A stretch of 14,397 nucleotides of DNA. It comes from a virus (lineage: Duplodnaviria; Heunggongvirae; Uroviricota; Caudoviricetes). The stretch lies in the IMG/VR virus record IMGVR_UViG_2563366907_000012, one strand, 5' to 3'. A program made the position numbers and the translations under genes. Of this stretch, positions 2,455 to 14,397 are shown piece after piece; the first letter of the stretch is position 1, and every line of letters begins with the position of its first letter. The notes under the pieces were generated by a model. It was given only the letters and a program-made list of their open reading frames with translations, did not search any database and had not been told where the DNA came from.

Positions 2455-2610
2455 TTACTCCTCAGGTTCGTAAGCTGTGAAGACAGCGACCTCCGTCTGG
2501 CCGGTTCGGAGTCGTACCTCGCAGAGGTCTTTCCTCGTTACCAGTGCCGTCACTATGACGGTTAAACAGATGACGATCAGGGCGATTAACATCGCCTTTT
2601 GCTGCTTCAT
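2455..2610 (-). CDS. hokD: Hok-family type I toxin (HokD/RelF-like membrane peptide)
   Basis: Hand-translated as MKQQKAMLIALIVICLTVIVTALVTRKDLCEVRLRTGQTEVAVFTAYEPEE (51 aa), near-identical to recalled HokD. Below the ORF-track length cutoff. Confidence 0.9.
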   Translation of the reverse strand: MKQQKAMLIALIVICLTVIVTALVTRKDLCEVRLRTGQTEVAVFTAYEPEE

Positions 2611-2666
2611 AGCCTGCTTCTCCTTGACCTTTCGGTCCGTAAGAGGCTAATCTCTATGTGTCGCAT
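2607..2666 (-). CDS. Short leader ORF (mok-like) translationally coupled to hok
   Basis: ATG at 2666..2664 encodes MRHIEISLLRTERSRRSRL; its TGA overlaps the hok ATG (ATGA). The start lies in an inverted repeat TCTATG-CGACA-CATAGA. Much shorter than plasmid R1 mok, so tentative. Confidence 0.35.
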   Translation of the reverse strand: MRHIEISLLRTERSRRSRL

Positions 2667-2720
2667 AGATATGGCCTCAGATTAATGTTAAGCGTCTTGC
2701 AGGACGCGTAATGTTAACTG
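2624..2720 (+). ncRNA. Putative Sok-like antisense RNA with promoter, antisense to the hok mRNA leader
   Basis: TTGACC at 2624..2629 and TAATCT about 18 bp downstream on the plus strand, inside the hok 5' region and pointing away. Downstream hairpin GCGTC-TTGCAG-GACGC (2692..2707) is flanked by direct repeats TAATGTTAA (2683..2691, 2709..2717). Boundaries approximate. Confidence 0.3.
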
Positions 2721-2868
2721 GGGCTTTTCTCTATCTGCCTTTTGGTGTTCATGCCTGAGACAGATAGCCTCAAGCACCCGCAGTCATTCTACTTAACTAA
2801 GATTTCCCCGCAAACCGTTTTTGTCCGGCACAGTAAATATCCAACTAAACCAATGGCGTTCGCTGTAT

Positions 2869-5801: not shown

Positions 5802-6518
5802 TCACCGCTGCTGCTCTCTGGTGGCGGTAATATCCCGGAGAATATCCCTGTGTTTGTTCAGTTCCCGCAGCGCAGCACAGACTCGCTCCCACTTCTGGAC
5901 ATCACTTTTCGCCCGGCGCAGCTCGCGGTTAGCCACATGCAGCGATGGTAGAATCAGGTCATCTGCTTTCATTTCGGTGATCGATGGCTGTAACCTCACA
6001 ATGTCTTCCACGATTTCTGTTTTCATTTCTTCCTGTGCCATCATTTCCTGTACTGGTAACGCAACACCTGCTGGCTGAGGAAAGGCTTTACCATCGGTTT
6101 CCGCTACGGATGCAGCTTCCGGCTCTGCCGGTAAATCAGCGCCCGGTATGCAGTAACGAAATTTACCGCCCTGATTCACGCGAATCAGACGCCCTTTGCT
6201 GATTGCCATGGCCAGCGATGAATTCGCCCGGCGCGAGGTAATCCCGAACATCAGTGCCAGCTCATCCGCCGTTTGTGGGCCATGTTGTTCAATCGCCTCA
6301 GTCAGCATTTGCGCTGTCACTTTCGGTACCGGTGACACCGGTTCACTTTCACCAGCCTGAATCAGCCACCACATCGAACCCTTGTTATCCGCTTCACCGC
6401 GGCGCTTCAGTTTCCACAGTTCGTTGACCGCATCTTCACGGCTGATTCCAAGGCGGGCCGCCACTACCTGTGAAGAGGCTCTTTTCAGTGCTTTCAGTGC
6501 GTCAAATACGGTTTCCAT
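5802..6518 (-). CDS. Hypothetical prophage protein with two winged-helix-like repeats and a C-terminal coiled coil (238 aa)
   Basis: ATG with GGAGG 7 nt upstream. Two similar segments ([25 protein letters not shown]; [28 protein letters not shown]). Lies just downstream of the DnaC-like gene. Confidence 0.65.
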
Positions 6519-6539: not shown

Positions 6540-7286
6540 TTACTTCACAACCCTCATATTGCTGACATTTGGACGCCAGCTATCCCAGTTAAACGTCACC
6601 CATCGACCACCGTTCATGGTCATGCGGTCCATAATCCTCTCACCAAGAAGCGTACTCATTGCGGCATGATTCAGGTTTGTTAACATCCCGACACTGCACA
6701 GTGATGCTGTCCGGCGATCAATTATCTGGTGCAATACCACCTGCTCGTTTTTCGTCTCCCGCTGAACGCCTATTTCATCCAGGACCAGCAAATCAACCCC
6801 GCAAAGCTCCTGTAAAAATTTTTCCCCGGATTTGCCGTTGTCGTAGCTGTCATGCAACACGCTCATGACGTCAGACACGGTGACGATAATCACGCTGCGC
6901 CCCTTCACCATCAGCCGGTTGCCCATCGCCGCTGCAAGGTGATTTTTCCCGGTGCCGGTTTTACCGCTGAACACAAAATTCGTGCACCCGGTCATCAGTT
7001 CGTCAGCTATGGATTTGGCCTGGCTCAGCGCGTATTTTTGCCCGTCGTTCTGCACCTGATAATTTGCAAACGAGCATTTGCTGTGCAGAGGCTGGATGCC
7101 CGAACGATTCAGGATTTTTTCCACCCGCAACTGGCGATTCTGGCGGTTAATCTCCTCGCTGCGTTTTCGTCCTTCAGCAAGTTGCCATTCCCGCCACTCC
7201 TCCACCGTCCGGTACGGTGGAACCGACCCCTGTGGTGCAAGTCTGCGAATACGTTCAAGAACCCCAACTGCCGCAATGTTTTTCAT
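6540..7286 (-). CDS. DnaC/IstB-like AAA+ helicase loader (replication protein)
   Basis: Walker A FSGKTGTGKNHLAAA and Walker B DLLVLDEIG; 248 aa; directly follows the O-like initiator. Confidence 0.85.
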   Translation of the reverse strand: MKNIAAVGVLERIRRLAPQGSVPPYRTVEEWREWQLAEGRKRSEEINRQNRQLRVEKILNRSGIQPLHSKCSFANYQVQNDGQKYALSQAKSIADELMTGCTNFVFSGKTGTGKNHLAAAMGNRLMVKGRSVIIVTVSDVMSVLHDSYDNGKSGEKFLQELCGVDLLVLDEIGVQRETKNEQVVLHQIIDRRTASLCSVGMLTNLNHAAMSTLLGERIMDRMTMNGGRWVTFNWDSWRPNVSNMRVVK

Positions 7287-7292
7287 GACACG

Positions 7293-8255
7293 TCACCCCC
7301 TGAATCCCGGCGGTATTTCAGTGTCCGGTTCAGAAATGTGATTCACGCAACGCTGCGCAGGCGAACGCCCCAGGCGGATAACCAGTTCATCCCATTTTTC
7401 CCGGAGTTTTGCCGGACTCATGATGTTTTTTACCCAGAACGAATCCCGCTGGAGACGCTCAAACATTTCACAAATTTGTCTGTGAGTTCTGCCATCCAGC
7501 ATCCGCATTGTGCGAACGTCATTGGCCCATGCTGTCCAGTTGGGTTCTTTCGGTCTAGTGATCTCGCCATCATAGCTGGCCGCCTGCTCGTAAAGACTCA
7601 CGATTCGTCCCCAGATCCACTGTGCGCACACCAAATCTTCCTGACTTCCCCACTGGCGTTTTTTCGCACTGAACACAACCGCGTCAGGGTGTCGGGTTAA
7701 AAAATCCTGTTCAGCCGTCTGCGGGTCCGGTTGCGAAGCGTCCGGACAAGAAGATCTTTTATCTGACGGATCAGGTTTTAATACTGACGGATCGGGGTCA
7801 ATCATCGCCCCCCTAATCGGCAGTTTTTTATCAACAGTTGATCCATCAAAATTTGACGGGTCAACCGTTGAGGGGTCAATATTTGACGGGTCAACTGTTA
7901 ACGGGTCATTTTTTGCCGGGCTAATTTTTCTTTTCGGTTTATATGACTCACGCGCCGCCGCCGCAGCTGCTTCGAGTTTTTCCACATTAAGTCGATAGAT
8001 ATTGCTTACATTACGCCCACCGACCTTACGCTCTTCCTTCGTCAGCCAGCCCTCTTTCGCCAGTTCTGCAATAGCCGATTTCACTGTGGATTCACTTCTT
8101 GCACCGATCTGACGCCGGATAGTTTCAATGGCAGGCCATGACACGCCCTCGTCATTGCTGTAGTCTGCAAGACGGGCCATAACCGCCACCCTGGATAAGA
8201 TCATGCCGGTGAAGGCGCACCCTTCCCAGACAAGACCATGAAGCTTGCTGCTCAT
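7293..8255 (-). CDS. Replication initiator, lambda O-like (HTH N-terminal domain, internal iterons)
   Basis: Trimmed to the ATG at 8255 (GGGGG SD; the track's 8270 start is GTG). N-terminal winged-helix domain; central DPSxx pentapeptide repeats encoded by DNA iterons. Confidence 0.8.
   Translation of the reverse strand: MSSKLHGLVWEGCAFTGMILSRVAVMARLADYSNDEGVSWPAIETIRRQIGARSESTVKSAIAELAKEGWLTKEERKVGGRNVSNIYRLNVEKLEAAAAAARESYKPKRKISPAKNDPLTVDPSNIDPSTVDPSNFDGSTVDKKLPIRGAMIDPDPSVLKPDPSDKRSSCPDASQPDPQTAEQDFLTRHPDAVVFSAKKRQWGSQEDLVCAQWIWGRIVSLYEQAASYDGEITRPKEPNWTAWANDVRTMRMLDGRTHRQICEMFERLQRDSFWVKNIMSPAKLREKWDELVIRLGRSPAQRCVNHISEPDTEIPPGFRG
7828..7924. repeat. Iteron array (putative phage origin) inside the O-like gene
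   Basis: Four tandem 15-bp units with core GGGTCA(A/T) starting at 7858, 7873, 7888 and 7903. TCAAC-N-GTTGA/GTTAA recurs every 30 bp (7831, 7861, 7891). A T-rich tract follows at 7906..7935. Confidence 0.6.
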
Positions 8256-8277
8256 AAAACCCCCGAACACCGTGCTT

Positions 8278-8703
8278 TTAGTGCATCACCACAGCATTCC
8301 CTGCCGGGCCGCCGCGATTCATCTGGTCATACAAAACAACCGCTGACGCAACAAAATCATCGACATCCTTCACCAGCCGATCCCTCCGTTCGACGATCTC
8401 ACGGTAATATTCAGAACTGTGGCTGCGCATACGGGCCACCAGCAGAGGCGGCATTGCCTTTTCGATCGCCGGTAACAGAGCCTGCATTTTTTCAACAGCA
8501 TCAGGGGTGTCTTTATCCAGCCAACGGAAAATTTTCTGGGTATTACGGGCCAGGGCTTCCGGATGGCTGTCGTCATACAGTTCCGGGAACGTCATTCCCA
8601 GCTCGAAATACGCTTTGGTAATTTTCGCAGCCGGTACTTTTTCGCCGTCCGGATGCGCCCAGACATTCATCGCCATGCGGATGTGTTCATGCTTGATTTT
8701 CAT
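8278..8703 (-). CDS. YdaT-family protein (cII-position regulator/toxin-like)
   Basis: Begins MKIKHEHI as recalled for Rac YdaT. 141 aa; start overlaps the cro-like stop (ATGA), matching ydaS-ydaT order. Confidence 0.65.
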   Translation of the reverse strand: MKIKHEHIRMAMNVWAHPDGEKVPAAKITKAYFELGMTFPELYDDSHPEALARNTQKIFRWLDKDTPDAVEKMQALLPAIEKAMPPLLVARMRSHSSEYYREIVERRDRLVKDVDDFVASAVVLYDQMNRGGPAGNAVVMH

Positions 8704-8915
8704 GAATCATTCTTTCCTTCGTTCGAGGTGCTATCCTGCTTCTTGTAAAGTTCTGGGTTGTATTTCAATTCACCGTTAGTAATTTCATCCAGTTCCATTG
8801 CGCGAAGTTTGGGAATAACTGCTTTCCACCGCACAACAGCCACATGTGAAATTCCAAGAGCCTCAGCTACTAGTCGCTTTTTTTTGAAATAGCGCAGAAC
8901 ATCATCTTTGAACAT
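8700..8915 (-). CDS. Cro-like DNA-binding protein (DicC/YdaS-type)
   Basis: 71 aa, divergent from the repressor, AGGAGAG SD 5 nt upstream. Central segment LVAEALGISHVAVVRWKAVIP fits a YdaS/Cro-type HTH. Confidence 0.7.
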   Translation of the reverse strand: MFKDDVLRYFKKKRLVAEALGISHVAVVRWKAVIPKLRAMELDEITNGELKYNPELYKKQDSTSNEGKNDS

Positions 8916-8944
8916 AAAACTCTCCTGTTATTTCGAGCAGAAGG

Positions 8945-9006
8945 GTAACAATAGTTACATAACAATGTCAACCATAGCAACATCACTTGGTAGTAACATT
9001 GGTTAC
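8945..9006. promoter_or_regulatory. Divergent immunity-region operators: two GTAAC-N4-GTTAC palindromes
   Basis: GTAACAATAGTTAC at 8945..8958 and GTAACATTGGTTAC at 8993..9006. The second abuts the repressor ATG at 9007, implying a leaderless or near-leaderless repressor transcript. Confidence 0.55.
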
Positions 9007-9681
9007 ATGAAAAACACTATCAGCGAACGTATTCGGAATCGTCGAAAAGACGTTGGATTAACCCAACAGCAGGTTGCGAAAGCAATCGGCATATCTCGTG
9101 TATCCGTAACAAAATGGGAAAATGGCTCTTCAAAACCTGACGGTGAGAATTTGTATCTACTGTCAAAATTGCTTTCCAAATCTCCTGAATGGATTCTTTA
9201 TGGAAAGGACTGTCACGATAAAACCGATGATCTGCGTCTGAATCAGTACCCTTACATTAGTGACAACATCGCCCGGTTGCCCGTTTTAACGTGGGAACAG
9301 GCTGGTTATTGGGATATGAGTTGTCCAGTAACCAAGATTCCTGGTATTAATAACTGGGTTGATGTCATGACAAAAACCGCTGAAAACTCTTTTTTATTGC
9401 ATGTTGAGGGAGATGCGATGACAAACTCTAACGGCCTCCCAACCATCCCCGACGGATCTACCGTGCTGATCACACCATGCTCAAGTAACATTAGAGAACT
9501 GGTGGGAAAAATAATCTTAATCCAATTGGAAGGAACGCCAAACGTAACACTAAAAAAAGTTGCGATTGACGGACCAAACATCTATTTGTTGTCACTGAAT
9601 CCGCTTTACAAACCCATCGAACTGAATGGTGGTTACACCATTAAAGGTAAAGTTTCACAAATACATCAATACTTAGACTGA
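9007..9681 (+). CDS. CI/C2-type prophage repressor (N-terminal XRE HTH, C-terminal S24 LexA-like domain with Ala at the catalytic Ser position)
   Basis: MKNTISERIRNRRKDVGLTQQQVAKAIGISRVSVTKWENG aligns with the recalled P22 C2 N-terminus. C-terminal domain has VEGDAM where LexA/CI have GxSM, with the VTLKKV Lys retained. Upstream TTG (8908) and ATG (8965) starts rejected. Confidence 0.85.
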   Translation: MKNTISERIRNRRKDVGLTQQQVAKAIGISRVSVTKWENGSSKPDGENLYLLSKLLSKSPEWILYGKDCHDKTDDLRLNQYPYISDNIARLPVLTWEQAGYWDMSCPVTKIPGINNWVDVMTKTAENSFLLHVEGDAMTNSNGLPTIPDGSTVLITPCSSNIRELVGKIILIQLEGTPNVTLKKVAIDGPNIYLLSLNPLYKPIELNGGYTIKGKVSQIHQYLD

Positions 9682-10827: not shown

Positions 10828-10880
10828 TTTCTGGTGACGTTTGGCGGTATCAGTTTTACTCCGTGACTGCTCTGCCGCCC
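10828..10880 (+). ncRNA. dicF: DicF small regulatory RNA (ftsZ-targeting antisense sRNA)
   Basis: The 53 nt TTTCTGGTGACGTTTGGCGGTATCAGTTTTACTCCGTGACTGCTCTGCCGCCC match the DicF sequence as I recall it, followed by TTTTT, between ydfC and dicB. Confidence 0.85.
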
Positions 10881-11431: not shown

Positions 11432-11523
11432 AACAGTTCCGTAATAAATATCCGGTTTCATTCTTATATGCCAGCAATGGCAGGGATTTGTTCATCCTTA
11501 AATCTGTCATGAGGTTAAAACAA

Positions 11524-14397
11524 ATGAGTAAAGTCTTTATTTGCGCCGCTATTCCTGACGAACTGGCAACAAGGGAAGAAGGCGCTGTGGCTGTAGCCAC
11601 AGCCATTGAAGCTGGCGACGAACGCCGTGCTCGAGCAAAATTTCACTGGCAATTCCTGGAACATTATCCGGCTGCTCAGGACTGCGCTTATAAATTTATT
11701 GTCTGCGAGGATAAACCTGGCATACCCCGCCCTGCCCTCGATTCATGGGATGCTGAATATATGCAGGAAAACCGCTGGGATGAGGAGTCTGCTTCTTTTG
11801 TCCCGGTTGAGACTGAATCCGATCCGATGAACGTCACTTTTGACAAGCTGGCCCCTGAAGTACAGAACGCTGTCATGGTTAAGTTCGACACATGTGAAAA
11901 CATCACCGTTGATATGGTTATTAGCGCACAGGAATTGTTGCAGGAAGACATGGCAACATTCGACGGACATATCGTTGAAGCGTTGATGAAAATGCCAGAA
12001 GTTAACGCCATGTATCCGGAGCTTAAGTTGCACGCCATTGGGTGGGTTAAGCATAAATGTATTCCTGGTGCTAAATGGCCCGAAATTCAGGCAGAGATGC
12101 GCATCTGGAAAAAACGTCGCGAAGGTGAACGCAAGGAAACCGGAAAATACACGTCTGTTGTTGATCTCGCCCGCGCCAGAGCCAATCAACAGTACACTGA
12201 AAATTCAACAGGAAAAATCAGCCCGGTCATTGCTGCCATTCATCGCGAATACAAGCAGACATGGAAAACACTGGATGACGAACTGGCCTACGCTCTCTGG
12301 CCTGGTGATGTGGATGCCGGAAACATTGACGGCAGCATCCATCGCTGGGCAAAAAAAGAAGTTATCGACAACGACCGCGAAGACTGGAAGCGTATCTCGG
12401 CATCAATGCGCAAACAGCCTGATGCCCTTCGCTACGACCGCCAAACTATTTTTGGCCTTGTCCGTGAGCGTCCGATCGACATTCACAAAGATCCCGTAGC
12501 ACTGAACAAATATATCTGCGAATACCTGACGACAAAGGGCGTGTTTGAGAATGAAGAAACAGACCTGGGCACTGTTGATGTTCTCCAGTCATCAGAAACA
12601 CAAACTGATGCAGTGGAAACTGAGGTATCTGATATCCCAAAAAATGAAACCGCGCCGGAAGCTGAACCATCTGTAGAGCGTGAGGGGCCGTTCTATTTCC
12701 TCTTCGCAGATAAGGACGGAGAAAAATACGGTCGCGCAAACAAACTCTCTGGTCTGGATAAGGCACTGGCTGCTGGCGCCACTGAAATCACAAAAGAAGA
12801 ATATTTTGCCCGAAAAAATGGCACATACACGGGCTTACCGCAAAATGTAGATACCGCTGAAGATTCAGAACAACCAGAGCCGATAAAAGTTACCGCTGAC
12901 GAAGTAAACAAAATTATGCAGGCAGCCAATATCAGCCAGCCTGACGCCGATAAGTTGCTTGCTGCATCACGTGGTGAATTTGTTGAAGGGATTAGTGACC
13001 CGAATGATCCGAAATGGGTTAAGGGGCTCCAGACCCGCGATTCTGTGAACCAGAACCAGCATGAATCGGAACGGAACTACCAAAAAGCGGAACAAAACAG
13101 TCCAAATGCGTTACAAAACGAGCCAGAAACGAAACAGCCTGAACCAGTAGCGCAACAGGAAGTGGAAAAAGTCTGCACCGCCTGCGGTCAGACCGGCGGC
13201 GGCAACTGCCCTGATTGTGGCGCGGTGATGGGCGACGCAACATACCAAGAAACATTCGATGAAGAGTATCAGGTTGAAGTTCAGGAAGATGATCCGGAGG
13301 AAATGGAAGGCGCTGAACATCCACACAAGGAGAACACTGGCGGCAATCAGCATCACGATAGCGATAATGAAACTGGCGAGACGGCAGATCACCCAATTAA
13401 GGTGAACGGTCATCACGAAATCACATCCACCAGCAGGACGTGTGACCATCTAATGATCGACCTTGAAACCATGGGAAAAAATCCTGATGCCCCGATCATC
13501 TCAATAGGTGCAATATTTTTCGATCCGCAAACCGGAGATATGGGACCGGAATTTAGTAAGACTATCGATCTGGAAACTGCTGGCGGAGTCATTGATCGGG
13601 ACACCATTAAATGGTGGCTTAAGCAATCACGCGAAGCGCAATCTGCCATTATGACCGATGAAATCCCGTTAGATGATGCACTGTTACAATTGCGAGAATT
13701 TATCGACGAAAACTCCGGTGAATTTTTTGTTCAGGTTTGGGGAAATGGAGCCAACTTCGACAACACGATTTTGCGCCGTTCATACGAACGGCAGGGGATC
13801 CCCTGCCCGTGGCGTTACTACAACGATCGCGATGTACGCACAATCGTTGAGCTGGGGAAAGCCATAGACTTCGATGCCAGAACGGCTATTCCATTCGAAG
13901 GTGAGCGCCATAATGCGCTTGATGACGCCCGTTACTGGGAACTGGAAAAAGATGAAGTGATAAGCCCACTGCCGGTTTATGCCTCAACCTTTGAAGGCTG
14001 GGACTCCCCTGAACGTAGTGCCTTCCCACTGCAACTGTTTGGTTTCCATTACAAATCCCGTACGCACTCGACCTACGGCAACATTGATGTCCTGAAGGCA
14101 GCCTGCCGTCAGGAAGTGTGGATCAACCCTATTGACGCACAGAAACGTGGGATTGCCAACGGCGATATGGTGCGGGTGTTTAACCATCGTGGCGAAGTTC
14201 GGCTACCAGCCAAAGTGACACCACGCATTCTCCCTGGGGTTAGCGCTATGGGCCAGGGAGCCTGGCACGAGGCCAATATGTCTGGCGATAAAATCGACCA
14301 CGGCGGCTGTGTGAATACGCTAACCACTCTGCGCCCTTCACCACTGGCGAAGGGAAACCCGCAGCACACTAATCTGGTCGAGATCGAAAAAATATAA
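11524..14397 (+). CDS. Large chimeric ORF: YdfE/RecE-like prophage protein (zinc ribbon plus DEDDh 3'-5' exonuclease domain) fused in frame to the C-terminus of a DmsA/YnfE/YnfF-family molybdoenzyme
   Basis: ATG at 11524 with GAGGT SD (track start 11488 is TTG). Features in order: CTACGQTGGGNCPDCG zinc ribbon (~13174..13221), acidic/His-rich linker, Exo I DLETMG, Exo II GNGANFD, Exo III HNALDDA (~13441..13930). From ~14010 on, FPLQLFGFHYKSRTHSTYGN ... GDMVRVFNHRGEV ... PSPLAKGNPQHTNLVEIEKI reads as a molybdopterin dinucleotide-binding domain. Stop is at the last base of the window. Confidence 0.7.
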   Translation: MSKVFICAAIPDELATREEGAVAVATAIEAGDERRARAKFHWQFLEHYPAAQDCAYKFIVCEDKPGIPRPALDSWDAEYMQENRWDEESASFVPVETESDPMNVTFDKLAPEVQNAVMVKFDTCENITVDMVISAQELLQEDMATFDGHIVEALMKMPEVNAMYPELKLHAIGWVKHKCIPGAKWPEIQAEMRIWKKRREGERKETGKYTSVVDLARARANQQYTENSTGKISPVIAAIHREYKQTWKTLDDELAYALWPGDVDAGNIDGSIHRWAKKEVIDNDREDWKRISASMRKQPDALRYDRQTIFGLVRERPIDIHKDPVALNKYICEYLTTKGVFENEETDLGTVDVLQSSETQTDAVETEVSDIPKNETAPEAEPSVEREGPFYFLFADKDGEKYGRANKLSGLDKALAAGATEITKEEYFARKNGTYTGLPQNVDTAEDSEQPEPIKVTADEVNKIMQAANISQPDADKLLAASRGEFVEGISDPNDPKWVKGLQTRDSVNQNQHESERNYQKAEQNSPNALQNEPETKQPEPVAQQEVEKVCTACGQTGGGNCPDCGAVMGDATYQETFDEEYQVEVQEDDPEEMEGAEHPHKENTGGNQHHDSDNETGETADHPIKVNGHHEITSTSRTCDHLMIDLETMGKNPDAPIISIGAIFFDPQTGDMGPEFSKTIDLETAGGVIDRDTIKWWLKQSREAQSAIMTDEIPLDDALLQLREFIDENSGEFFVQVWGNGANFDNTILRRSYERQGIPCPWRYYNDRDVRTIVELGKAIDFDARTAIPFEGERHNALDDARYWELEKDEVISPLPVYASTFEGWDSPERSAFPLQLFGFHYKSRTHSTYGNIDVLKAACRQEVWINPIDAQKRGIANGDMVRVFNHRGEVRLPAKVTPRILPGVSAMGQGAWHEANMSGDKIDHGGCVNTLTTLRPSPLAKGNPQHTNLVEIEKI

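Follow-up and report, generated by a model that had tools for sequence, protein, structure and literature searches.

A candidate replication origin formed by 15-bp repeats within the O-like initiator gene of a lambdoid Escherichia coli prophage

The IMG/VR virus record IMGVR_UViG_2563366907_000012 includes a stretch of 14,397 nucleotides that was analyzed as a whole and is referred to here as the 14.4-kb window. The window carries, when read along the minus strand, the early-right region of a cryptic, lambdoid, Qin/Rac-like Escherichia coli prophage. One of its genes encodes an O-like replication initiator of 320 amino acids, and inside this gene lies an array of 15-bp tandem repeats that encodes codons 112-142 in frame (…NDPLTVDPSNIDPSTVDPSNFDGSTVD…). 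The array and the DNA that follows it within the gene are described here as a candidate replication origin. Coordinates of all features are collected in Table 1.

A preliminary description of this DNA had reported four 15-bp repeats. The array is real, but it contains five good units and one degenerate unit arranged head-to-tail rather than four. The four GGGTCA cores spaced by 15 bp in that description are present, and so is the 30-bp periodic TCAACnGTTGA element, which alternates with TCAAwwTTTGA. On the plus strand, the units consist of the block TCAAnnnTTGA(C) followed by a variable spacer, and perfect 11-bp palindromes are present in three of the six. Tandem Repeats Finder reported a period of 15 at 7831-7908/7852-7929 (5.2 copies, 71% matches) and a period of 30 at 7846-7920 (84% matches, score 101), and a repeat search returned five in-register copies with 15-nt spacing. 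When 7831-7920 is compared with itself, identity is 0.69 at a lag of 15 and 0.80 at a lag of 30, whereas no other 90-bp stretch of the window exceeds 0.45 at lag 15. None of 20,000 shuffles matched the observed self-identity at lags from 4 to 40. The motif TCAANNNTTGA occurs five times in the window, four of them inside the array, compared with 0.42 occurrences expected in the whole window. This is the sole sizeable tandem array in the 14.4 kb. The T-rich tract that was said to adjoin it is only modest. Short runs do occur (T6 at ~7822-7827, T6 at 7909-7914, and TTTTTCTTTTC at 7925-7935), but the best 40-bp stretches nearby have A+T contents of 0.65-0.70, compared with 0.80 for lambda.

Several other features were sought at the array and set aside. 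An antisense gene or RNA was rejected: no plus-strand open reading frame (ORF) of at least 50 amino acids overlaps the array, no Rfam family overlaps it (the window scan matched sok and DicF alone), and no promoter-like site was found in 7200-9100. Two 8/9 matches to the DnaA box lie beside the array (7828-7836 and 7978-7986), but the 16 such matches in the window compare with 11.9 expected, which is the level of chance. The match at 7828-7836 seems, by eye, to be altered in relative L002. An oriC-like 13-mer was also rejected, since GATCTTCTTGTCC near 7753 differs by eye from GATCTnTTnTTTT at four positions.

The initiator begins at an ATG at 8255, with an alternative upstream GTG start at 8270, and its RefSeq name is ‘helix-turn-helix domain-containing protein’. 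Its earlier designation as O-like is well founded. Residues 1-320 match profile positions 1-298 of PHROG 391, ‘replication initiation O-like’ (E = 2e-115), and the C-terminal domain of lambda O has its counterpart in residues 182-300. By tblastn, this latter region is 38.7% identical to the O proteins of lambda, 933W and phage 21 (E = 7e-19) and 36.3% identical to phi80 gp15. The N-terminal portion is different. Residues 25-71 match the Pfam domain HTH_36 (PF13730; E = 2e-6, 27.9 bits against a cut-off of 25), with DnaD_N as a weak match. The AlphaFold2 model of residues 1-100 has a predicted local distance difference test score (pLDDT) of 84 and the topology H-H-H-H-beta-beta-H, and the nearest solved folds found with it by Foldseek are winged-helix DNA binders of the MarR/PadR/ArsR type. 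This is presumed to be the domain that binds the repeats. Between the two domains, the repeats are in frame, and the translation of the minus-strand gene contains VDPSNIDPSTVDPSNFDGSTVD, as the preliminary description had stated. The initiator is thus a lambdoid-style chimera, in which a DNA-binding head of its own is joined through a repeat-encoded linker to a tail of the lambda O type.

The protein ends in VNHISEPDTEIPPGFRG, which a phmmer search of the PDB found to match closely the last 17 residues of E. coli DnaT (VNTVSEPDSQIPPGFRG; entries 2ru8, 6aep and 9zbt). This tail was the sole match when solved structures were searched by sequence with the initiator. The resemblance hints that the contact made by DnaT in replication restart may be mimicked in helicase loading, and it probably accounts for the recurring database label ‘primosomal protein I’.

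Comparison with related genes indicates what is conserved in the repeats. From 82 non-identical genes across Enterobacterales, 297 units were defined at the protein level as xxS[KNEDT]S. For tests of the unit consensus, units were picked either in this way or by periodicity alone. The first Ser of the unit is encoded by TCA in 268 of the 297 units and never by TCT or AGY, whereas the second Ser, two residues on, is encoded by TCT in 238 and by TCA only once. At the position between Asp and Ser, A, P, T, L, G, R, V, E, H, Y and M all occur. Codon use in the linkers also departs from that elsewhere in the same genes, with TCA and TCT making up 83% versus 36% of Ser codons and AAA making up 93% versus 66% of Lys codons. 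Among units extracted by periodicity, wobble positions 9 and 15 rank with the most conserved and informative, and conservation is lowest at codon 2, in each of its three positions.

What is conserved is a DNA block of 12 nt, followed by a free spacer of ~3 nt. The block reads TCA-AAA-TCT-GAC in most relatives, hereafter the common type, and TCAA-nnn-TTGA(C) in the window type. The peptides of these subfamilies differ (SKSD versus SNID or STVD) while TCA…TGA(C) stays. Because a peptide cannot impose mutually exclusive Ser codons, a free middle residue and conserved wobble positions, the comparison shows, at the level of codon usage, that selection acts on the DNA of the repeats and not on the peptide. 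The repeat pattern first noted in the window recurs in related prophages and phages throughout Enterobacterales, where it is kept as DNA, with synonymous codons specific to each position.

The identity of the repeats is linked to that of the N-terminal domain. The blocks of the window type and of the type found in Shigella phage SfII differ at unit positions 13-14, which are (A/G)T and TC, respectively. Between the corresponding heads, differences are found where the predicted recognition helix begins and in the wing. In phage HannyBb (and mEp460), the C-terminal half of the window gene is present, with 86% nucleotide identity up to ~7760. The HannyBb protein (L095, O gene at 894-1859 of the locus, minus strand) has an unrelated N-terminal domain with no Pfam match, and its gene carries three ATyGGkTCAAAA repeats (SIGSK / VIGSK) at ~23-bp spacing, which are a further candidate set of iterons with a different specificity. 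The cassette of HTH_36 and 15-bp repeats also occurs in combination with a different C-terminal domain, Phg_2220_C. Travel of the repeats with the N-terminal domain is the pattern that would be expected of an initiator-binding domain and its sites.

Conservation at the nucleotide level extends to a segment of ~27 codons downstream of the array (7725-7805). Several codons of this segment are fixed or nearly so among the 82 genes: GAT (82/82), CCG (80/82), TCA (66/66), GTA (74/76), GAT (72/72), TGT (61/61) and GAC (70/70). Fully fixed codons are interspersed with residues that vary freely. At 49 conserved residues of the N-terminal domain, by comparison, the commonest codon averages 0.52 and synonymous sites are saturated. 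The 12-mer GATCCGTCAGTA (7782-7793) is at least 90% conserved at every position, and the motif GATCCGTCAG is present in two copies, each of which contains a Dam site and is similar to an iteron's left half. GATC sites are dense here, with four in 88 bp, compared with 2.9 per kb in the window. The best AT-rich 40-mers of the gene (0.68-0.70) are located in or beside this segment, and similar values are seen for SfII (0.70) and phi80 (0.68). The helix-stability z-score of the AT-rich stretch is ~+1 to +1.5. By position and by analogy, 7725-7805 is a candidate for the unwinding or helicase-loading part of an origin.

In Providencia and Proteus relatives (Providencia sp. L020 versus L091/L092), the AT-rich stretch is followed by TCGCAGAATTCTGACGAATCC (SQNSDES). 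This sequence is close to TC(A/C)GAGAATTCTG(G/A)CGAATCC, encoding SENS(G/D)ES, of lambda and phi80. Lambdoid origin types that are otherwise different may have the DNA of their right arm in common.

Initiators of this family are common. Of 5426 complete E. coli genomes, 1517 (~28%) contain at least 80% of the 571-bp segment 7700-8270, mostly with at least 99% identity, and O157:H7 strains are among the carriers. A protein search yielded 914 clusters of relatives. A genome scan yielded 80 loci in Edwardsiella, Erwinia, Morganella, Providencia, Proteus, Pantoea, Yersinia, Rahnella, Enterobacter, Kluyvera and other genera. In most of ~85 linkers, no period gives a stronger self-correlation than 15 bp, and a period of 30 or 45 bp leads in most of the others.

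The number of units varies. Close E. coli relatives have two, three, four or five units in proteins of 305, 310, 315 and 320 residues, respectively. In the SfII-type branch the number ranges from 0 to ~10, although the isolated phages of this branch (SfII, SfIV, Kati, vB_EcoM-689R6 and phiNP) have four each. These five-residue steps agree with the earlier proposal that repeat number and linker length change together. Hypervariability, however, is not seen: array length is identical in 80 near-identical IMG/VR copies, whose differences are single substitutions. A hypermutable (contingency) repeat was rejected on this basis.

Two relatives are unusual. In Tatumella saanichensis (L090, 2501-3613 of the locus) the linker array is far longer, with a 45-nt superperiod in which EPSEPQGPKSGLSESEGLKTG occurs at least four times, and it is an extreme expansion of the initiator linker region. 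NZ_CP148542.1 (L093) is a 16-kb circular E. coli ‘plasmid’ that consists of the immunity, replication, nin and lysis region of this prophage alone, with no other replicon listed, and it recalls the lambda-dv plasmids. Its O-like gene (1660-2637) is frameshifted at a C-run just before the first GATCCGTCAG, possibly through a sequencing error. The molecule may replicate autonomously as a circle, or it may be an assembly artifact. General use of the module by plasmids was rejected, since most plasmid matches are prophages in mis-typed chromosomes or megaplasmids and this suggestive example has a frameshifted O gene.

The best explanation for these observations is that the 15-bp repeats are iterons bound by the initiator and that, with ~80-100 bp downstream, they constitute the replication origin of the prophage within the linker-coding part of the O-like gene. 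We consider this interpretation likely because the position and architecture match those of the proven origins of lambda and phi80, and because selection at the DNA level, co-inheritance with the N-terminal domain, the conserved flank and the absence of any other sizeable array in the window all point the same way. If it is correct, then the winged-helix domain would bind the TCAAnnnTTGA(C) blocks, one per 15 bp, to form a nucleoprotein array resembling the O-some of lambda. Such an array could stress and open the adjoining, moderately AT-rich 7725-7805 segment, whose two GATCCGTCAG motifs are half-iteron-like and Dam-methylatable. The lambda-O-like C-terminal domain, possibly with the DnaT-like tail, might then bring host DnaB by way of the neighboring DnaC-like loader. 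Units would be gained or lost by unequal recombination or slippage and, because the sites are in frame, the number of sites and the length of the linker (by five residues) would change together. The sequences themselves establish the repeats and where they lie, the arrangement of domains, selection at the DNA level, co-inheritance with the N-terminal domain and differences in unit number; binding, unwinding, helicase loading and activity in the truncated prophage we infer.

Some observations weigh against this interpretation. Dyad symmetry is good in the window units but is imperfect in the commoner SfII-type block (TCAAAATCTGA), so that either a monomer or a dimer per unit is possible. To our knowledge, a center-to-center spacing of 15 bp is shorter than that of any known lambdoid origin, and it places successive sites on different faces of the helix. 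The best AT-rich stretch beside the repeats falls well short of that in lambda and is comparable to that in phi80. Relatives with 0-2 units exist (P0107, P0103 and P0099); these may be defective, or the repeats may be non-essential. The prophage itself is truncated, and what it carries may be the relic of an origin, even though both the initiator gene and the loader gene are intact. Finally, no paper on the origin of this initiator family and no experiment on the family was found in the literature.

An alternative explanation is that the repeats bind the initiator for control, through titration, handcuffing or a transcription roadblock, while initiation takes place only at the conserved downstream segment or elsewhere. 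In plasmids of the iteron type, a single set of sites both starts and limits replication. The relatives with 0-2 units and the stricter conservation of the downstream segment than of the repeats would also be accommodated, and good binding in Stx (Shiga toxin) phages is limited to four of the six iterons (PMC7466680). Even so, a purely regulatory role seems unlikely. The architecture is collinear with that of lambda and phi80, in which initiation takes place at the repeats. The 14.4-kb window showed no second repeat array or candidate origin, and no extra TCAAnnnTTGA cluster was found near the promoter region.

The nucleotide conservation, especially that of 7725-7805, might instead mark a mosaic-joint linker that is kept alike by frequent homologous recombination among phages and that contains no functional DNA site. 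The segment does lie at a point of module exchange: the homology with HannyBb and mEp460 stops at ~7760, and two kinds of C-terminal domain are found attached to the HTH_36 cassette immediately after QPD. We judge this account very improbable, because fixed codons among freely varying residues suggest motif-wise selection, unlike a recently shared block, and the position-specific codons of the repeats are left unaccounted for. Both effects could coexist, and mosaic-joint homology may contribute to the conservation of the segment. That the repeats are a feature of the protein alone, a flexible, low-complexity DPSxx linker expanded by slippage with no role as DNA, would suit a linker that is rich in Pro, Ser and Asp, is predicted to be unstructured in character and varies freely in length as if loosely constrained, but there is scarcely any room for this idea when TCA and TCT are mutually exclusive in ~80-90% of the 297 units, the residue in the center is unconstrained, conservation at wobble positions exceeds that at the first two positions of codon 2, and TCA…TGA(C) is kept under different peptides.

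The proposed origin resembles several established or suspected ones. In lambda, the iterons and an AT-rich tract lie in the middle of gene O, and the number of iterons is four or six among lambda and its Stx relatives (PMC7466680). In-frame deletions within the repeats are known as ori mutations (PMC6022878). The preliminary description had drawn an analogy with the position of lambda ori, and the comparison is apt: as in ori-lambda and the six-iteron origins of Stx phages 933W and P27, the repeats occupy the middle of the initiator gene in frame and separate the DNA-binding head from the loader-recruiting tail, and the C-terminal domains are homologous. There are also differences. The window head is HTH_36 and lacks a match to Phage_rep_O (PF04492), the N-terminal domain of lambda O. 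The window units are 15 bp and abutting, whereas the lambda sites are ~19 bp, dyad-symmetric and separated by spacers. The AT tract of the window is weaker (0.68-0.70 versus 0.80), and the partner protein is a DnaC/IstB-like ATPase rather than lambda P.

Gene 15 of phi80 (JX871397) has the same layout, with four annotated gp15-binding sites at codons ~122-147. These repeats encode the short peptide repeat FPK(T/S)G… at 21-bp spacing and are followed by an AT-rich stretch and then by a related segment, AAAAGATCTTC…GTCCG, encoding KRSS…FL(S/T)(T/R)HP(E/D)A. In contrast, the N-terminal domain and the sequence and period of the repeats differ from those of the window.

The closest parallels among isolated phages are SfII and SfIV (Shigella), Kati and vB_EcoM-689R6 (Escherichia) and phiNP (Citrobacter), which belong to the same family, with 56-58% full-length identity for SfII-type proteins. 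Their four 15-bp units (TCTGACCCGTCAAAA, encoding DPSKS or DASKS) occupy the same place and are followed by the same conserved downstream segment. Since these phages were isolated and are viable, the module is functional in them. Their block consensus is TCAAnnnTTGAC, compared with TCAAAATCTGAC in the window, and residues of the recognition helix and wing differ. We found no published origin annotation for SfII-type phages, including in the paper on SfIV.

The nearest published parallel, equally a computational inference, concerns gene 18 of Salmonella phage L and of P22, for which imprecise short repeats in a distant O homologue were proposed as putative origins (PMC8022706). The repeats are unrelated (TGTCCAACGGA, 11 bp and six copies in phage L), and the N-terminal domains are different. 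The non-lambdoid ‘Eru’ replication units of Stx phages were considered as a further parallel and rejected; the paper on them does not treat origins or this module.

A more remote comparison can be made with iteron plasmids such as F, P1, R6K and pPS10 (Rep_3/RepA), in which tandem direct repeats that bind the initiator lie by an unwinding region, some with Dam sites. Plasmid iterons are ~17-22 bp long, recur in helical phase and lie outside the rep gene, and DnaA boxes are usual. By contrast, the window repeats have a period of 15 bp and lie inside the gene, and DnaA-box-like matches occur at chance level. As far as we could find, the putative origin is a new and apparently undescribed member of the known class of origins that are embedded in lambdoid initiator genes.

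The genes around the initiator (Table 1) follow the order of a lambdoid early region, and the DnaC/IstB-like loader gene directly downstream also matches PHROG 50, ‘DnaC-like helicase loader’ (E = 8e-82). The K-12 Rac prophage has a similar gene order, racR-ydaS-ydaT-ydaU-ydaV, but Rac was rejected as a match since K-12 YdaU is a DUF1376 protein and thus a different initiator. Rac has a genetically defined origin, oriJ, on which nothing at the sequence level was found in the literature.

Table 1. Features of the 14.4-kb window, with positions counted from its first nucleotide
Feature	Position	Strand	Basis or sequence
Repeat array, six head-to-tail 15-bp units, five good and one degenerate (7906-7920)	7831-7920		Tandem Repeats Finder, repeat search, autocorrelation
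Unit 1	7831	+	TCAACAGTTGATCCA
Unit 2	7846	+	TCAAAATTTGACGGG
Unit 3	7861	+	TCAACCGTTGAGGGG
Unit 4	7876	+	TCAATATTTGACGGG
Unit 5	7891	+	TCAACTGTTAACGGG
Unit 6, degenerate	7906	+	TCATTTTTTGCCGGG
Nucleotide-conserved segment, ~27 codons, encodes MIDPDPSVLKPDPSDKRSSCPDASQPD	7725-7805		Fixed synonymous codons in 82 genes
First GATCCGTCAG motif, with Dam site	7784-7793	-	Nucleotide consensus of 82 genes
Second GATCCGTCAG motif, 21 bp from first, with Dam site	7763-7772	-	Repeat search, codon comparison
Candidate DNA-unwinding element, among the gene's richest 40-mers in A+T (0.68), between/around the two GATCCGTCAG motifs	7748-7787		AT scan
O-like replication initiator gene	7293-8255	-	ORF and translation, PHROG 391
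N-terminal winged helix-turn-helix domain, residues 1-95	7971-8255	-	Pfam HTH_36, AlphaFold2, Foldseek
C-terminal domain, residues 182-300, lambda O C-terminal homologue	7356-7712	-	tblastn
DnaT-like C-terminal tail VNHISEPDTEIPPGFRG, last 17 residues	7296-7346	-	phmmer against PDB
DnaC/IstB-like AAA+ helicase-loader gene, directly downstream of initiator	6540-7286	-	Pfam IstB_IS21 (E = 7e-19); PHROG 50
DUF1627 gene	5802-6518	-	Gene order
YdaT/CII-like protein	8278-8703	-	Gene order
Cro-like protein	8700-8915	-	Gene order
CI-like S24 repressor	8908-9681	+	Gene order

The truncation of the prophage is evident at one end of the window, where the exonuclease gene runs in frame into the 3′ end of host ynfE at ~13927. 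No integrase or excisionase gene was found in the 14.4 kb. The resulting ORF of 969 residues (11488-14397, plus strand) has an Rv2179c-like 3′-5′ exonuclease domain at residues 654-816, and its ynfE part is a Molydop_binding domain. The stretch 13927-14397 is 99.6% identical to ynfE. When 13700-14397, which spans this junction, was used as the query, coverage of at least 80% was obtained in no complete E. coli genome of the collection. Within the exonuclease ORF, 13046-13160 has a weak 21-nt periodicity (identity ~0.62) and encodes a stretch rich in Glu, Asn, Gln and Pro (GAACCAGAA…GAACGGAAC…). Rfam matches in the window are the DicF RNA at 10829-10880 (plus strand, 76.7 bits) and the sok antitoxin RNA at 2608-2779 (minus strand, 106.7 bits), the latter beside a hok-type locus. 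DicF and sok/hok are typical of Qin-like cryptic prophages.

A more specific proposal, which we offer as speculative and hold to be rather unlikely, is that HTH_36 O-like initiators use a distinct origin design of three parts. These would be an array of unusually short, abutting 15-bp iterons that varies in number, a core that is invariant throughout the family (GATCCGTCAGTA … GATCC(A/G)TCAG) in which two Dam sites bracket the unwinding segment, and recruitment of the helicase without a lambda-P-type protein, by means of a DnaT-mimicking tail (…SEPDxxIPPGFRG) and the DnaC-like loader. If this proposal is true, then the two Dam sites could provide control by Dam and SeqA or could serve as initiator half-sites, and prophage modules that are very common in E. 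coli would tap the replication-restart machinery of their host.

The finding leaves the understanding of lambdoid phage replication unchanged. What is added here is a codon-level case for selection on DNA, the extension of the candidate origin to 7725-7805 with its invariant GATC-bearing motif, and the cassette behavior of the repeats. Databases label the gene by its helix-turn-helix domain or, misleadingly, as that of a primosomal protein, and the 15-bp period of TCA…TGAC blocks together with GATCCGTCAGTA could be used as an annotation signature for prophage origins. The presence of an origin would explain the five-residue length polymorphism of the initiator proteins, and the N-terminal domain and its sites would be a cassette that is exchanged among phages. 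The gene also appears to be a clean case of dual coding, in which position-specific synonymous codons reveal a DNA site within an ORF.

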